Assembly (NCBI RefSeq): GCF_009931435.1
Contig: NZ_CP043415.1
Length of the DNA stretch: 64,000 nucleotides
Source of the DNA: Escherichia coli
GTDB lineage: Bacteria; Pseudomonadota; Gammaproteobacteria; Enterobacterales; Enterobacteriaceae
Strand: one strand, 5' to 3'
Under the pieces are notes generated by a model that was not told the origin of the DNA, made no database searches, and saw only the letters and a list, made by a program, of their open reading frames with translations. A program made the position numbers and the translations under genes. Position 1 is the stretch's first letter. The number at the start of each line of letters is the position of its first letter. Positions 50,805 to 61,928 of this stretch are shown here, piece by piece.

Positions 50805-51707
50805 TCATCCACCGTAATGCGCCACCTTGTCGACTATCCACGCAGGTCCGGTGACTTCCGGCAGCTCATCGTCATCTGTCGGGGAAGACCATTCCAGTTC
50901 CCCCCACAGCACATCAACAAGCTCTCCACGCTCATATCGCTGCCAGCCACAGAAATTGCAGCCCTGTTCGGCGTACCAGTGCTCCAGCGTGCAGCCGAAA
51001 CGGCGGCTTAATTCTGCAACAACGTCGCTTTCCGGCTGACACCACGGCGTGTCGAAATCCACCTGAATGAAGTTTTCCCCCTGACTGCTGATATTCAGGT
51101 CATACCCACAAGGCCACTTCACGCCATACCGTTCTGTATACCAGTGATATGCAGAAGGAACACCGTTCAGAACACCACCGTTAAAGCCATTCACTTCAAC
51201 ATCCAGGCGGGTCGGCAGAACCGTCAGCAGGTCAAACGGCATGGTTTTTTCCGGCACTACGTTGTCACACAGACGGTTCCACCACACCGATACATCCTCG
51301 TTACCCCAGATGTCACACCAGTCACCTCTTTTTGCGGTGAAATGCACAGTGATGGTTTCCCTGACATCATCCGGTAACCCTTCCCAGCGACGCTGTCCAG
51401 TACCGCTCTGCAGCCAGAGTTCATGCAGCATCAGGCAGTTTTGCTCATCCAGCAGTACACCGTTCTGCAGGTGTGTCAGCCAGCGGGTGAACGCGATATT
51501 TTCCGTCGATACAGCACCACGTCCGGCAGCCGTCACTCCGGGGCACTGCTCAGAGCGGATATTTTCAGTGATCTGCAGAAGTCCGGCACTTCCGGCCAGA
51601 AACAGCTGAATACCTTCATTTGTGGCGCGGCGATAAAACGGTGTGACTGCACCGCTGGCCCGTCGTTTAATCTCAGCAATCTGTGCCGGTTCACCAGAAA
51701 AATGCAT
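50805..51707 (-). CDS. Hypothetical protein, 300 aa; ATG sits at the predicted 3' end of the group II intron
   Basis: ORF track; Trp/Cys-rich; no family assigned. Confidence 0.6.
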   Translation of the reverse strand: MHFSGEPAQIAEIKRRASGAVTPFYRRATNEGIQLFLAGSAGLLQITENIRSEQCPGVTAAGRGAVSTENIAFTRWLTHLQNGVLLDEQNCLMLHELWLQSGTGQRRWEGLPDDVRETITVHFTAKRGDWCDIWGNEDVSVWWNRLCDNVVPEKTMPFDLLTVLPTRLDVEVNGFNGGVLNGVPSAYHWYTERYGVKWPCGYDLNISSQGENFIQVDFDTPWCQPESDVVAELSRRFGCTLEHWYAEQGCNFCGWQRYERGELVDVLWGELEWSSPTDDDELPEVTGPAWIVDKVAHYGG

Positions 51708-54096
51708 ACGATCGGGTAGCAGTGATGCATTACTGCATCACCGCCCCCTAAGAACCGTACGTGCCAGTTTCCCGGCATACGGCTCAAGCCTTTCTAAGCC
51801 CACTCTCATGAGCCGGTTTCACTACATGTATACCTTTCGCATGAACAAGTGTGTGACACATCGGATGCAGCATAATCAAATTGGAGAGGCAGTTGCTCCC
51901 TCCATCGACTCGCCGTATGATGTGATGAACCTGCCACTGGGAATCAGATGTAATCCTCTCATCACATATGGGGCATCGGCCCCGCTGCTCAAACCAGATT
52001 TGAATGAGCTTTTTCCGTCCTTGCAGTTTGTGCCGCATTTTGTCTGCACAACGCTCCTCAAAGTACATCTCCCATTGAGGATCGAACGGATTAGCTGCAA
52101 TTTTAATCGGTTTAAACCGGTTGATAGGCGTATCGATTGCTTTCCTCAGATTTGCATACTGAGGCTTACCGTTGGCAAGGAGTTCTCCGGTAGCCGTGGA
52201 GAAAGACCAGTTTCGGGCACCTTGTTGATGGAAATATCTTTTCCGAATCCACTTCTTTCCCTTATTGGGATGACGCCGAACAGCCCAACGCCATAAAGCC
52301 AGCCAGATCTCATTGTCAACTTTGTTAAATGCGACCTTGGCCACAATGTGTTGATGGTAAGCCGCCCACCCTTTGATCATTGGGTTCAGCATGCGGATCA
52401 ACGTAAGCTGATCCATAGCTTTGTTGCCTTTGATTACAGCGCGTATTTTCTTTAAAAAGGAACTGACATTGGCTTTAGAGGGTTTGATCAGCATCTTACC
52501 GCCATATTTGCGAATGTTCTGTCCAAGAAAATCAAATCCTTCCTCGATATGTGTGATTTTCGTCTTTTCCGGAGAAAGCATTAATCCTCTTTCAGCCATA
52601 AACCGCCTGACGACGGGTAATACCTGAGACTCAAGAAGTTCTTTTGACTCTCCAGTGATAATAAAATCATCAGCATATCTCACATAGTTAACTTTCGGGT
52701 TAACCAATCGTCCCTTGACTGTTCTCTTTTTAAACTCCGAAGCAAGAAGCGCCTCCAGTCCATCCAGAGCAATGTTAGCCAGTACAGGAGAAATTATTCC
52801 CCCCTGAGGAGTTCCTGAATTTACAGGGAATAACTGCCCCTTTTCCCTGTAACCCGCTTTAAGCCACTTTGTCAGGATTTGTCTGTCTGTTGAGGTGTTA
52901 TCGATTAGCCATTGATGAGATATATTGTCAAAGCATCCCCGTATATCCCCCTCAAGCACCCATTCAGCGGATGTTTTCTGCGCAAGAACACAGAAGCACT
53001 GTGCTATCGCATCTGCAGTAGACCTTCCAGTCCGAAAGCCGAAGGATCTCTGGTCAGCAGTGACTTCAGCAACGGGCTCAAGAGCCAGCAAATACAACGC
53101 CTGCATCGCCCGATCCTTCATAGTGGGTATCCCAAGGGGACGAGACTTCCCATTTGACTTAGGTATATAAACCCGCTTAAGTGGCTGTGGTTTGTAACCA
53201 CGCCGTTTCAGCAGGTTAATAGCAAGAAATTTAACCTCCGGGGAAGACCATGTCTGACCATCAACCCCAGGAGTACGTTTCCCGCTATTCTCTGTAACTC
53301 GTCTGACAGCAACTGCTCTGCCACTAAACGAGTGAGTCAGTATCCATTGCAAGGATTTGACCTTGCCATGTTTACCTTCTCGTGTTGCCTTTACGATACG
53401 CGCTTGCAGTCTCCGCACTTCCCGATAGCACTGACGCCAGTTGATACTGTGCCAGGAGTCACCGTTAAGTAAGGACGCACCTTTACAGGTTGTAGCCTGC
53501 TCAGTCATCTGCTTTTCCTTTCTGGAAGATTACTCAAACTCTCTCGTAATGAAAGACCCAGTGGAAGTCTGCCCGCTTTCGCGTAGGGTAATGTTGCCGG
53601 GCTCAACCCTTATCCGGTCCATTACAGACTGGCATTCGCTTTTTCCACCTTCTTTTACCCGCACCGCCAACAGTATCCCTTGCGGTTAACCTGCCTCACG
53701 AGGCAGCGATACGGGCTTACCATGTTCCACCTGAATAACAACAGTAGGTTAGACTCTGCTCACAACACCGGTGGTTTATTGTCCGTGTACCCCTAGCAAA
53801 CAGAGGAGTAACCAACCACATACCTTTTGGTTCAAGCCTGTCAGCATCTTTGGCTTGTTCTGGTTAACGACGCTTCAGCAGTTCACATATGTTAGTCATG
53901 CTACCGAGCCTAGACCTCCTCCGCCTGATGCTGGCAGATTACATGTAACCTCACGGTTTCATGCGATCCGAAGATCCGGTTTCATTGTCCTGACAGCTTC
54001 ACACCCCACCGTTACCAGTGACGCATGTGTCAGTAGGCTACTGATGACGGAACATCAGGTTCCCTGACGGAATCGAACTCCGCTGGAACAATTATT
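51708..54096 (-). mobile_element. Group II intron (3' boundary approximate)
   Basis: 5' end GTGCGAC (complement of 54096-54090); domain V GAGCCGTATGCCGGGAAACTGGCACGTACGGTTC at 51752-51785; internal RT ORF. Confidence 0.8.
51784..53508 (-). CDS. Group II intron-encoded reverse transcriptase/maturase with C-terminal HNH endonuclease
   Basis: 574 aa; YADD motif; maturase region; HH...C..C HNH-like C-terminus. Confidence 0.95.
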   Translation of the reverse strand: MTEQATTCKGASLLNGDSWHSINWRQCYREVRRLQARIVKATREGKHGKVKSLQWILTHSFSGRAVAVRRVTENSGKRTPGVDGQTWSSPEVKFLAINLLKRRGYKPQPLKRVYIPKSNGKSRPLGIPTMKDRAMQALYLLALEPVAEVTADQRSFGFRTGRSTADAIAQCFCVLAQKTSAEWVLEGDIRGCFDNISHQWLIDNTSTDRQILTKWLKAGYREKGQLFPVNSGTPQGGIISPVLANIALDGLEALLASEFKKRTVKGRLVNPKVNYVRYADDFIITGESKELLESQVLPVVRRFMAERGLMLSPEKTKITHIEEGFDFLGQNIRKYGGKMLIKPSKANVSSFLKKIRAVIKGNKAMDQLTLIRMLNPMIKGWAAYHQHIVAKVAFNKVDNEIWLALWRWAVRRHPNKGKKWIRKRYFHQQGARNWSFSTATGELLANGKPQYANLRKAIDTPINRFKPIKIAANPFDPQWEMYFEERCADKMRHKLQGRKKLIQIWFEQRGRCPICDERITSDSQWQVHHIIRRVDGGSNCLSNLIMLHPMCHTLVHAKGIHVVKPAHESGLRKA

Positions 54097-54491
54097 CAGG
54101 CGACTTCATGTCGCACATTTGAGCACCAGTTTGGCATGGGAATTCTCCTCTCACATGCGGCCTCCACCAGGCCGTGCCGCACCTGTAACCGGGCGACCGC
54201 ATACGAATGCAGGTGCGGCCCCGAAGCCGCAGCGCGTGGAGGAGGAACGACGAAACGTGACCGGGTGAGGAGGCCGGCGACAGCGACACACTTGCATCGG
54301 ATGCAGCCCGGTTAACGTGCCGGCACGGCCTGGGTAACCAGGTATTTTGTCCACAGAACCGTGCACAAAATGCTGTGGATAAGCTGGACACAGCCGTCCA
54401 CAGCAGGCATACAGCCACACCCTCAGAGAATTGAGCGTTTTTTAGTCACAATAATGACATTTGACTGTGTGTGGATTCAGTTATTAGAATA

Positions 54492-54530: not shown

Positions 54531-54779
54531 ATGATCCGCATTGAAATTCTTTTCGACCGCCAGAGCACAAAAAACCTCAAATCAGGCACACTTCAGGCGC
54601 TACAGAATGAAATCGAACGACGTCTGAAACCACACTACCCGGAAATCTGGCTGCGTATAGACCAGGGCAGCGCCCCGTCTGTATCTGTCACAGGAGCCCG
54701 CAACGACAAGGATAAAGAACGTATCCTGTCTCTGCTGGAAGAAATCTGGCAGGACGACAGCTGGCTGCCTGCAGCATGA
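54531..54779 (+). CDS. impC: ImpC (DinI-family); track ORF starts at 54471
   Basis: MIRIEILFDRQS...KDKERILSLLEEIWQDDSWL resembles DinI. Confidence 0.8.
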   Translation: MIRIEILFDRQSTKNLKSGTLQALQNEIERRLKPHYPEIWLRIDQGSAPSVSVTGARNDKDKERILSLLEEIWQDDSWLPAA

Positions 54780-55195
54780 GTACCGTTTATCACCGTCCGG
54801 CTGACCCTTCAGGCAATGACAGTTACGTGCGACCGTTGTTTGCCGATCGTTGCCAGGCCGGTTTTCCTTCGCCTGCCACTGATTATGCTGAGCAGGAACT
54901 GGATCTGAACAGCTATTGCATCAGCAGACCTGCAGCCACCTTCTTTCTGCGCGCCAGCGGTGAATCGATGAACCAGGCTGGCGTGCAGAATGGTGATCTG
55001 CTGGTAGTGGACAGGGCCGAAAAACCACAACACGGGGACATCGTTATCGCTGAGATCGACGGGGAGTTCACCGTCAAACGACTGCTGTTGCGCCCACGCC
55101 CGGCACTGGAGCCGGTTTCAGACAGCCCGGAGTTCCGCACACTGTATCCGGAAAACATCTGTATTTTTGGTGTTGTCACTCACGTTGTTCATTGA
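54776..55195 (+). CDS. impA: ImpA (UmuD-like, S24 LexA-type peptidase)
   Basis: 139 aa; CQAGFPSPATDY, SGESM and K in FTVKRL align to UmuD. Confidence 0.88.
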   Translation: MSTVYHRPADPSGNDSYVRPLFADRCQAGFPSPATDYAEQELDLNSYCISRPAATFFLRASGESMNQAGVQNGDLLVVDRAEKPQHGDIVIAEIDGEFTVKRLLLRPRPALEPVSDSPEFRTLYPENICIFGVVTHVVH

Positions 55196-60714: not shown

Positions 60715-61041
60715 ATGACTAAAAATACTCGTTTTTCCCCCGAAGTCCGTCAACGCGCAGTTCGTATGGTTCTGGAAAGTCAGGGCGAATATGACTCACA
60801 GTGGGCGGCAATTTGTTCCATTGCCCCAAAGATTGGCTGTACGCCGGAGACTCTGCGTGTCTGGGTTCGCCAGCATGAGCGGGATACCGGGGGCGGTGAT
60901 GGTGGGCTCACCAGCGCTGAACGTCAGCGTCTGAAAGAGCTGGAACGTGAAAATCGTGAACTGCGCTGCAGTAACGATATCCTTCGCCAGGCTTCCGCTT
61001 ATTTTGCGAAGGCGGAGTTCGACCGCCTCTGGAAAAAATGA
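60715..61041 (+). CDS. IS629 OrfA
   Basis: 108 aa [26 protein letters not shown]... Confidence 0.95.
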
Positions 61042-61928
61042 TGCCACTGCTGGATAAGCTGCGTGAGCAGTACGGGGTCAGACCGGTATGCAGCGAACTG
61101 CATATTGCCCCGTCAACGTATTACCATTGTCAGCAACAGCGACATCATCCGGATAAACGCAGTGCCCGTGCGCAGCACGATGACTGGCTGAAGAAAGAGA
61201 TACAGCGCGTATACGATGAAAATCACCAGGTATACGGTGTGCGTAAAGTCTGGCGTCAGTTGTTACGGGAAGGTATCAGAGTGGCCAGATGCACTGTGGC
61301 ACGTCTCATGGCAGTTATGGGACTTGCCGGTGTTCTCCGGGGTAAAAAGGTCCGCACTACCGTCAGCCGGAAAGCCGTTGCCGCATGCGACCGCGTAAAC
61401 CGTCAGTTCGTGGCAGAACGTCCAGACCAGTTGTGGGTGGCTGATTTTACCTGGGTAAGCACATGGCAGGGCTTCGTTTATGTGGCGTTCATCATTGATG
61501 TGTTCGCCGGATACATCGTGGGATGGCAGGTCTCATCATCCATGGAAACAACATTCGTGCTGGATGCACTGGAGCAGGCGTTGTGGGCCCGTCGGCCGTC
61601 CGGCACAATCCATCACAGTGATAAAGGTTCTCAGTATGTATCGCTGGCCTACACGCAGCGGCTTAAGGAAGCCGGATTACTGGCATCAACAGGGAGTACT
61701 GGCGACTCGTATGACAACGCGATGGCGGAGAGCATCAATGGTCTTTACAAAGCGGAGGTAATACACCGTAAGAGCTGGAAAAACCGGACAGAAGTGGAAC
61801 TGGCCACACTAACGTGGGTGGACTGGTATAACAATCGACGATTGCTGGGAAGGCTGGGCCATACTCCTCCGGCAGAAGCAGAAAAAGCTTATTATGCTTC
61901 CATCGGAAACAATGATCTGGCAGCCTGA
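61038..61928 (+). CDS. IS629 OrfB (DDE transposase catalytic part)
   Basis: 296 aa integrase-core ORF overlapping orfA. Confidence 0.95.

Follow-up and report, generated by a model that had tools for sequence, protein, structure and literature searches.

In the 64,000-nt stretch of Escherichia coli DNA analysed here (the window), a group II intron of 2406 nt lies on the minus strand at positions 54116-51711, within DUF1281 (also known as YubB or yfaB), a gene of the plasmid leading region. The 5' exon contributes a start codon at 54137-54135 and codons 2-7 (MPNWCSN; 54117-54137, minus strand, from empty sites and homologues), preceded by a Shine-Dalgarno (SD) sequence, GAGGAG, at 54145-54150 (minus strand), 7 nt upstream of the ATG. 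The 3' exon (50805-51710, minus strand) carries codons 8-308 and the stop codon, as assigned by domain and sequence analysis. A preliminary description of this DNA had proposed alignment with intron-less loci, and this alignment defined both boundaries: the intron is absent precisely from three empty sites (L001, L003, and L004), and filled and empty sites differ by its precise presence or absence at a specific target, without target duplication. The termini fit the pattern 5' GUGYG / 3' AY. The 5' splice-site consensus GUGCG (GTGCG, 54116-54112, minus strand) is invariant in six related introns; the 3' end, ...CCCGAT, stops at 51711 and reads ...CTACCCGAT; and the 5'-junction pattern of the site is ATGCCNAAYTGGTGYNNNAAYGTGCG. 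The preliminary description had recognised the GTGCG motif, which is real, but had it begin at 54096, inside 'aataat' and 20 nt off. It had also placed the 3' end at 51708, whereas the CGT at 51710-51708 is exonic and present in every empty site.

Both the ribozyme and the intron-encoded protein are intact, and Rfam and Pfam matches agree with the earlier identification of a group II intron with a reverse transcriptase (RT)/maturase/HNH reading frame. The conserved core of domain I (Rfam RF02012, group-II-D1D4-7) lies at 53913-54059 on the minus strand (133.4 bits, E 4.8e-28). Because only 57 nt precede this core, in a domain I of about 400 nt in total, there is no large subdomain Ia insertion. 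RF00029, which models domains V and VI, matches 51787-51711 on the minus strand (66 bits, E 8e-11), and the end of the model falls at 51711, in agreement with the empty-site boundary. Rfam and folding both place the 34-nt domain V at 51752-51785 (minus strand), where it had first been seen, with an AGC triad, a 2-nt bulge, and a GAAA (GNRA) loop. Domain VI (51714-51748, minus strand) folds at -47 kcal/mol (z -5.9). By fold and Rfam alignment its bulged branch-point A is at 51717 (position -7), 7 nt from the 3' splice site where 7-8 nt is the criterion; this fold, which had also been proposed as a check, supports the end at 51711. The reading frame in domain IV (51784-53508, minus strand) encodes a 574-aa protein with RT, maturase, and DNA endonuclease domains (RVT_N, RVT_1, GIIM (maturase, X), and HNH; Pfam E 3e-45, 3e-32, 9e-24, and 2e-09), and it matches NCBIfam TIGR04416 at 372 bits, above the cut-off.

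All 2406 of the 2406 intron nucleotides are identical to the EcI5 copy of pO157 Sakai, far beyond chance and with no difference from EcI5 in the catalytic core, and the intron-encoded protein is identical to the pO157 Sakai protein over 574/574 aa. The EcI5 intron and its target are textbook material, and EcI5 is a commercial targetron scaffold; the original papers are reportedly Zhuang 2009 and Dai and Zimmerly 2002a and 2002b. The natural host of EcI5 is pO157, and EcI5 is classed as IIB1/CL1 (PMC8643678). We are confident that the element is EcI5 (E.c.I5), a mobile bacterial group II intron with a IIB1 ribozyme (an assignment that rests on identity to published EcI5) and a CL1-lineage RT/maturase/HNH protein, and that it occupies its natural retrohoming site, in sense orientation, between DUF1281 codons 7 (AAT, Asn) and 8 (CGT, Arg). 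It is a known element at a known site. In pO157, the E. coli O157:H7 virulence plasmid, the same intron, with the same protein, is inserted in DUF1281 at the identical position, with flanks 99.8% identical over 2606 nt. The two loci differ in that (i) the carrier here is a conjugative IncFIA/FIB/FIC-type plasmid, whereas pO157 is non-conjugative; (ii) exon position -4 is A here instead of G (synonymous TCA/TCG); and (iii) a few downstream codons differ. We considered the A at -4 as a mark of intron co-conversion and rejected it, since an empty site (L009) has the same allele.

The preliminary description had the intron abut the start codon of a 300-aa gene. The ATG at 51707-51705 is indeed present, but it lies 3 nt downstream of the intron and is codon 9. 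Pairing between SD and anti-SD is predicted at -9.1 kcal/mol for the upstream ATG versus +0.3 kcal/mol for ATG 51707 in unspliced RNA, and ahead of Met9 there is no SD (+0.3 and -2.8 kcal/mol). The motif MPNWCxNR (M1 P2 N3 W4 C5 N7 R8) is invariant in 25 protein homologues, while residue 9 varies among M, L, I, V, and A. At 15 genomic loci, down to 33% identity, the DNA reads ATG CCN AAC TGG TGY NNN AAY MGN, each time with its own SD, followed by a codon 9 of CTG, CTT, ATT, TTA, or ATG, mostly not ATG. The host protein matches PF06924 (E 1e-45) and carries a ferredoxin-like C-terminal domain (PF18406, E 8e-15) as well as the N-terminal motif; NCBIfam has no model for it, and our literature search found no functional study of DUF1281, yfaB, or Api92. 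The Api92 crystal structure homologue (2IJR) aligns from residue 3 (E 2e-46), and in an AlphaFold model of the host protein (pLDDT 89.5) residues 4-12 form the first beta-strand. Together, conservation and modelling show the predicted true start of DUF1281 to be 54137-54135, upstream of the intron.

RefSeq/PGAP calls a gene of 300 aa (903 nt) from the inner ATG at filled and empty sites alike, as would be expected if the intron lay in a 5' untranslated region, the gene began at 51707, and the upstream in-frame ATG were irrelevant, leaving the coding sequence uninterrupted. We regard this as very improbable given the invariant motif, the usual absence of ATG at codon 9, the SD energies, and the placement of these residues in the first beta-strand by Api92 and the structure model; in LC567081 and with other gene callers the length is 308 aa. 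The alternative offered in the preliminary description, an intergenic insertion with an unchanged gene start, is also wrong, as the insertion is inside the coding sequence.

There is next to no chance that the intron ends at or inside the start codon of the 300-aa gene, so that splicing recreates an ATG and creates translation initiation. The closeness of ATG 51707 to the 3' splice site and the RefSeq call from that ATG lend the idea some appeal, and there is a real IIB1 clade whose targets are start and stop codons. However, it is already refuted by the empty sites, in which AAT CGT ATG is uninterrupted. The proposed join of ...GCTCAAAT to GCATTTT... does not occur either, since empty sites read ...GCTC[G/A]AAT CGT ATG [C/T]AT TTT. 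The Rfam model and branch-point spacing put the intron end at 51711, residue 9 is unconserved, and eight invariant codons with an SD lie upstream. The clade in question (groEL-type introns), the real-world counterpart of the start-codon idea, likewise combines a IIB1 ribozyme, a CL1 RT, and an endonuclease domain, and its ribozymes are about 70% identical to EcI5 (bioRxiv 10.1101/2024.12.23.630110). Its members are inserted within the start or stop codon, whereas EcI5 here lies between codons 7 and 8, and the whole start codon belongs to the 5' exon, beginning 21 nt before the 5' splice site. At the base of domain I, members of the clade also carry a 5'-subterminal subdomain Ia of 300-700 nt. 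EcI5 lacks this insertion, and the clade's authors, who note its absence, do not count EcI5 as a member (bioRxiv 10.1101/2024.12.23.630110).

We derived the exon-binding sequences (EBS) by covariation with the 5' exon across six introns. EBS2, AACCAG (intron positions 252-257; 53860-53865, minus strand), pairs with CTGGT of IBS2 (54129-54124, minus strand), and EBS1, GUUUGC (intron positions 316-321, in a hairpin loop; 53796-53801, minus strand), pairs with CAAAU of IBS1 (54122-54117, minus strand). Across the six introns, 88.9% of cells were paired versus 31-42% when the register was slid, none of 500 shuffles did as well, and 11 of 12 pairs were compensatory. The EBS1 assignment is also consistent with ectopic EcI5 sites, and native IBS1 pairs with only five of the six EBS1 bases. 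IBS3 is the C at 51710, the first 3'-exon base; its partner EBS3, a IIB hallmark pairing, was not located in a comparison limited to two 3' exons. Two other candidates were set aside. As a candidate EBS2, CACCGGU (intron position 344) complements ACTGGTG perfectly but does not co-vary in relatives. GUUUGAG at intron position 578 is complementary to CUCAAAU at 7/7 positions, but it lies in a domain IVa loop adjoining the SD of the RT and was judged coincidental (about 0.15 chance matches expected). A Pantoea ananatis plasmid intron in umuD (L008) has the same architecture, in frame in a plasmid gene, with ribozyme and RT 74% identical to those of EcI5. Its target gene and target sequence differ from those of EcI5, and its EBS2 co-varies with its own exon; its weak IBS1 match (4/6) suggests that it may occupy a non-cognate site.

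Critical target positions for EcI5 are C-18, C-17, A-15, A-14, and T+5 (PMC8643678). The first four are present in the 5' exon at 54134, 54133, 54131, and 54130, and T+5 is present at 51706, the middle base of codon 9. Target recognition covers -18 to +5, the stretch of DNA coding for the invariant P-N-W-C-x-N-R-(hydrophobic). Because this stretch encodes an invariant motif, the site should persist throughout the gene family, and the host gene could hardly escape by mutating it. Published EcI5 work suggests that the precursor RNA would splice with maturase help and release a lariat-protein particle, which would reverse-splice into empty DUF1281 sites. EBS1, EBS2, and EBS3 would pair with target positions -13 to +1 while the protein reads C-18, C-17, A-15, and T+5, and HNH would then nick the bottom strand and so prime reverse transcription.

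Among plasmids, about 150 sites are filled versus thousands that are empty, and about 2.6% of complete E. coli genomes have EcI5 in the leading-region gene. Beyond pO157, EcI5 is found on conjugative IncF plasmids, on plasmids of Salmonella, Shigella, and E. fergusonii, and at a few chromosomal look-alike sites; ectopic copies occupy target-like sites with A-14 and CTGGTG in common. Non-mobilizable pO157-type plasmids make up 92 of the 154 carriers. A peptide-pattern search, which recognises uninterrupted sites only, showed no occupied DUF1281 site beyond the EcI5 carriers and is thus no proof that such sites are absent. The carrier in the window matches an IncFIA/FIB/FIC conjugative plasmid at 100%, and DUF1281 lies at the distal end of the leading region.

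Joining of the exons is computed to give ...TCA AAT/CGT ATG..., with a predicted ligated junction of ...GGTGCTCAAAT to CGTATGCAT... and an in-frame 308-aa protein, without any ATG being re-formed at the junction. Left unspliced, the RNA codes for MPNWCSNVRHEVA only, with computed termination after 13 codons, and full-length protein thus depends on splicing. As predicted from these frames, full-length DUF1281 protein can only be obtained from spliced mRNA. The earlier view that expression depends on splicing therefore stands for the full-length protein, but the cause is an intron inside the coding sequence rather than at its start: this is the splicing dependence of an ordinary intron within a gene, not of a start-codon intron. 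A scan for sigma-70 promoters found none on the minus strand and none for the host gene.

Splicing and retrohoming activity have been reported for the identical EcI5 sequence (PMC8643678, PMC6003770). In E. coli, EcI5 splicing reaches only about 17%, with strong reductions in host mRNA and in reporter protein (PMC6003770). The intron probably reduces the level of DUF1281 protein. Should DUF1281 matter in establishing the plasmid, the presence of the intron would modulate it. These numbers could also be read to mean that the correctly placed intron is in effect a knockout, with negligible native splicing and a dispensable DUF1281 whose inactivation is tolerated. Bacterial group II introns are usually located where damage is tolerated (PMC3522654), and in the pO157-type majority of carriers a leading-region gene may be useless. 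We think this unlikely, as the 308-aa frame across the exons is unbroken in pO157 and other carriers as well as in the window, ribozyme and protein match experimentally active EcI5 exactly, and 17% splicing is not zero. A coding-sequence intron that lowers expression has a parallel in Ll.LtrB, which is likewise mobile and in sense orientation within a conjugative-plasmid gene (the relaxase gene ltrB of pRS01, Lactococcus lactis); there the host protein is made only after splicing, and host-gene expression is reduced by the intron (PMC6003770). Ll.LtrB differs in being of subgroup IIA and mid-gene in an essential transfer function, whereas EcI5 is IIB1 and lies seven codons into a leading-region gene.

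The position of EcI5 might be adaptive rather than incidental, through entry-burst expression, ribosome/ribozyme competition, and family-wide targets, although we give this only a slim chance. DUF1281 belongs to the leading region, the transferred strand serves as its template, and the 280-nt region upstream folds strongly as single-stranded DNA; no Frpo-type paralogue of this structured region was found within the window. Given this arrangement, conjugative entry could be followed at once by a burst of intron RNA and RT, which, if true, would coincide with resident plasmids offering empty DUF1281 sites to invade. A ribosome that initiates at the host ATG would sit over IBS2 and IBS1 (codons 3-7), and translation initiation may thus compete, on each transcript, with the ribozyme's recognition of the 5' exon. 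Reading the DNA of an invariant motif would, if true, give EcI5 potential targets across the DUF1281 family, in Enterobacterales and beyond.

Two minor points are new: the RefSeq 300-aa call is eight codons short, and the EcI5 homing site coincides with the invariant N-terminal motif of the protein. The short annotation masks the fact that EcI5 interrupts the coding sequence, in the protein's most conserved motif.

The minus strand of the window contains a complete group II intron, with Rfam matches there to both its domain I core (RF02012, 133 bits) and its domains V/VI (RF00029, 66 bits). It carries a 574-aa ORF with RVT_N, RVT_1, group II maturase and HNH domains that scores above the NCBIfam equivalog cut-off for group II RT/maturases. 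The Rfam matches and this ORF confirm the intron itself, as proposed in the preliminary description, but both of the coordinates proposed there (51708-54096) are revised. Comparison of empty and filled sites places the intron at 54116-51711 (minus strand, 2406 nt). Three empty sites read ...CCCATGCCAAACTGGTGCTCGAAT CGTATG[T/C]ATTTT..., and the filled site in the window reads ...GCTCAAAT [GTGCG ... CTACCCGAT] CGTATGCATTTT, with the intron in brackets. The GTGCG 5' end is thus at 54116 and not at 54096, and CGT at 51710-51708 is exon, so the 3' end does not abut the ATG at 51707-51705. The end at 51711 is the exact end of the Rfam domain V/VI model. Folding domain VI, suggested earlier as a check of the 3' splice site, gave a single branch-type bulged A at 51717, seven nt from the intron end, which likewise puts that end at 51711. 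Three independent observations agree on the boundaries: the end of the Rfam model, the bulged A, and pairing of the 5' exon with domain I.

The copy on pO157 (O157:H7 Sakai) is identical to the window intron in sequence (2406/2406 nt) and in its protein (574/574 aa). pO157 is the natural home of EcI5, an intron of subgroup IIB1 with a CL1-lineage RT (PMC8643678). Critical positions of the natural EcI5 target are C-18, C-17, A-15, A-14 (IBS2a) and T+5, minus denoting the 5' exon and plus the 3' exon (PMC8643678); all five are found at the window site. Because of this identity and these five positions, we identify the intron from its sequence as EcI5 itself at its own homing site: a known intron at a known site.

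The interrupted gene encodes a DUF1281/Api92-like protein (PF06924 and PF18406), known as yfaB on IncI plasmids and as YubB among UniRef names. RefSeq/PGAP starts it at ATG 51707 (300 aa) in filled and empty sites alike (the window and comparison loci L001, L002, L003 and L005). An in-frame ATG at 54137-54135 lies seven nt after GAGGAG, with an SD/anti-SD energy of -9.1 kcal/mol, whereas the inner ATG scores +0.3 in unspliced and -2.8 in spliced RNA. Among 25 homologues with identity as low as 45%, M1, P2, N3, W4, C5, N7 and R8 are invariant, and position 9 varies among M, L, A and V. Across 15 genomic loci with identity down to 33%, including Pantoea, Erwinia, Citrobacter, Cedecea, Pluralibacter, Shewanella, Proteus and Providencia, the gene begins ATG CCN AAC TGG TGY NNN AAY MGN, each with its own Shine-Dalgarno sequence, and codon 9 is CTG, CTT, ATT, TTA or ATG. 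The alignment to Api92, a crystallised homologue (PDB 2IJR), begins at residue 3, and residues 4-12 form the first beta-strand of the AlphaFold model (mean pLDDT 89.5). On the strength of the Shine-Dalgarno sequence, the invariant N-terminus, the variable residue 9, the Api92 alignment and the modelled strand, the host gene is 308 codons long, join(54137..54117, 51710..50805) on the minus strand, and ATG 51707, previously taken as its start, is codon 9. The intron separates codon 7 from codon 8 and is in phase 0. A modest new point is that the RefSeq start of the DUF1281 gene is eight codons short, in what looks like a systematic mis-annotation across thousands of plasmid records.

Ligation of the exons gives MPNWCSN/RMHFSG... 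(slash at the junction), 308 aa with the frame intact. No ATG is assembled at the junction, where one had been expected to be recreated, and the proposed start-codon mechanism is refuted. Dependence of expression on splicing survives in another form: production of the full-length DUF1281 protein is predicted to depend on splicing because the intron interrupts the coding sequence. The unspliced message encodes MPNWCSNVRHEVA and then a stop at intron positions 19-21. A product started at Met9 would be without a ribosome-binding site, would begin past the invariant motif and would lose half of the first beta-strand. When flanked by its homing site, EcI5 splices at about 17% in E. coli, and mRNA and reporter protein are markedly lower than from an intron-less construct (PMC6003770). 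We infer that EcI5 carriage is probably not neutral for DUF1281 output but reduces it.

To locate the exon-binding sites (EBS), we compared six related introns whose exons are unrelated, namely EcI5 and its relatives on plasmids of Pantoea, Klebsiella, Enterobacter, Bradyrhizobium and Rhizobium, by aligning domain I and the final 25 exon bases. Covariation with the 5' exon picks out two domain I segments. EBS2 is AACCAG (intron positions 252-257; 53865-53860 in the window). EBS1 is GUUUGC (intron positions 316-321; 53801-53796 in the window) and sits in the loop of a hairpin that has compensatory changes in its stem. Standard pairs occupy 88.9% of 72 cells, compared with 31-42% after a shift of the partner columns by 1-3 positions; 11 of 12 EBS/IBS pairs vary on both sides, and none of 500 shuffles matched the observed covariation values. 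IBS2 is therefore at -13..-9 and IBS1 at -5..-1, which fixes the 5' splice site. A first EBS2 candidate (CACCGGU, intron position 344) was rejected, as it showed no covariation in relatives. For EBS3, a comparison of two 3' exons yielded no assignable position.

All six bases of EBS1 are complementary to GCAAAC (Ala-Asn), which is the most frequent variant across the wider DUF1281 family and the majority form in Pantoea and Shewanella homologues (loci L012, L014 and L020), versus five of six bases pairing with the E. coli plasmid variant TC[A/G]AAT. This hints that EcI5 may have been tuned on another member of the gene family. Exon position -4 (54120) is A in the window (TCA, Ser6) and G (TCG) in pO157 and in the majority of empty sites; the EBS1 base opposite is U and pairs with both. 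The A is ruled out as a footprint of insertion, since an empty site (L009) has the same allele. Separately, GUUUGAG (53533-53539; intron positions 578-584), in a hairpin loop of domain IVa just upstream of the RT Shine-Dalgarno sequence, complements the last seven 5'-exon bases (7/7), probably by chance (about 0.15 matches expected).

The recognised target, -18 to +5, corresponds exactly to codons 2 to 9 of the DUF1281 gene. C-18 and C-17 are bases 1-2 of Pro2, and A-15 and A-14 bases 1-2 of Asn3; IBS2 runs from the end of Asn3 through the whole Trp4 codon to base 1 of Cys5; IBS1 takes in bases 2-3 of codon 6 and the complete Asn7 codon; IBS3 coincides with base 1 of Arg8, and T+5 falls on base 2 of codon 9, which encodes a hydrophobic residue. 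Every DUF1281 homologue retrieved has ATGCCNAACTGGTG unchanged in its DNA. Homing elements are well known to target DNA that encodes an invariant protein motif. That the EcI5 homing site coincides with the invariant N-terminal motif is a second modest new point, and it explains why the intron lies near a start codon with no link to initiation.

A specialised IIB1 clade inserted at start or stop codons has two defining features, namely this pattern of insertion and a subdomain Ia of 300-700 nt at the domain I base; its authors regard EcI5, whose ribozyme is about 70% similar but lacks the subdomain Ia insertion, as a non-member (bioRxiv 10.1101/2024.12.23.630110). Neither defining feature was found in the window intron: the conserved domain I core begins after just 57 nt of intron sequence, and the intron is inserted 21 nt downstream of the ATG. 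A relative on a Pantoea ananatis plasmid (L008, 2001-4409; 74% identity to EcI5) splits umuD in frame (DYVEA/ELDLNEL). Its IBS1 match is poor (4/6), and the comparison suggests that it may occupy a non-cognate site.

The window is part of an F-type conjugative plasmid. FinP, the traJ 5' UTR, sok and tra antisense RNAs (Rfam) and TraM, PsiA and PsiB (NCBIfam) were detected in it, and over 3.2 kb its sequence is 100% identical to an IncFIA/FIB/FIC plasmid from E. coli FDAARGOS_1058. Within the leading region, the host gene is found at the far end and shares its strand with psiB, psiA and orphan methyltransferases. Given an oriT adjoining traM, its template would be the transferred strand, by a logic that belongs to established F biology. 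The same strand logic has been described in PMC9849209. The 280 nt upstream of the true ATG (54138-54420) are non-coding, GC-rich and conserved, and form a long stem-loop when folded as ssDNA (-76 kcal/mol, z -4.75). The region has no paralogue within the window and no reconstituted -35/-10 by eye, and a promoter scan found no sigma-70 promoter on the host gene's strand. A speculative role for it is as a single-strand promoter or an initiation signal of the leading region; if it were such a promoter, intron expression might be tied to conjugative entry. Two tandem plus-strand ORFs (340 and 260 aa; 38916-40717), between psiB and the next minus-strand leading-region ORFs, were taken for a putative insertion sequence. 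The window also contains an ALIL pseudoknot (IS3-family frameshift signal) at 60996-61112 and a umuD-like gene (54776-55195, plus strand), the divergent neighbour of the EcI5 host gene.

The insertion is present in about 150 PLSDB plasmids, against thousands in which this locus lacks it. The DUF1281 locus occurs in about 3,000 E. coli genomes, with the site empty in nearly all. Near-identical E. coli plasmid loci also appear on contigs labelled uncultured Oscillibacter MAG and Acinetobacter idrijaensis (L010, L025), labels that are probably binning or contamination artefacts. The 3' junction is present in 154 PLSDB plasmids (149 Escherichia, 5 Salmonella), of which 92 are non-mobilizable (pO157-like), 58 conjugative and 4 mobilizable; Shigella plasmids also gave full-length domain I matches. 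A 2012 survey listed E.c.I5 from EDL933 and Sakai only (PMC3522654). The 5' junction region was found in 143 of 5,426 complete E. coli genomes, at 161 places (148 plasmid, 13 chromosomal). Chromosomal copies, two of them essentially identical to EcI5 (L006, 3018-5423; L007, 3015-5420), occupy look-alike sites. EcI5 has inserted antisense into a prophage gpU tail gene of the O157:H7 86-24 lineage (CCATACTGGTGATCAAAT/C) and into an integrase gene of strain BCE049 (GCTAACTGGTGAGCTAAC/G), and both sites keep A-14 and CTGGTG, as in the native target.
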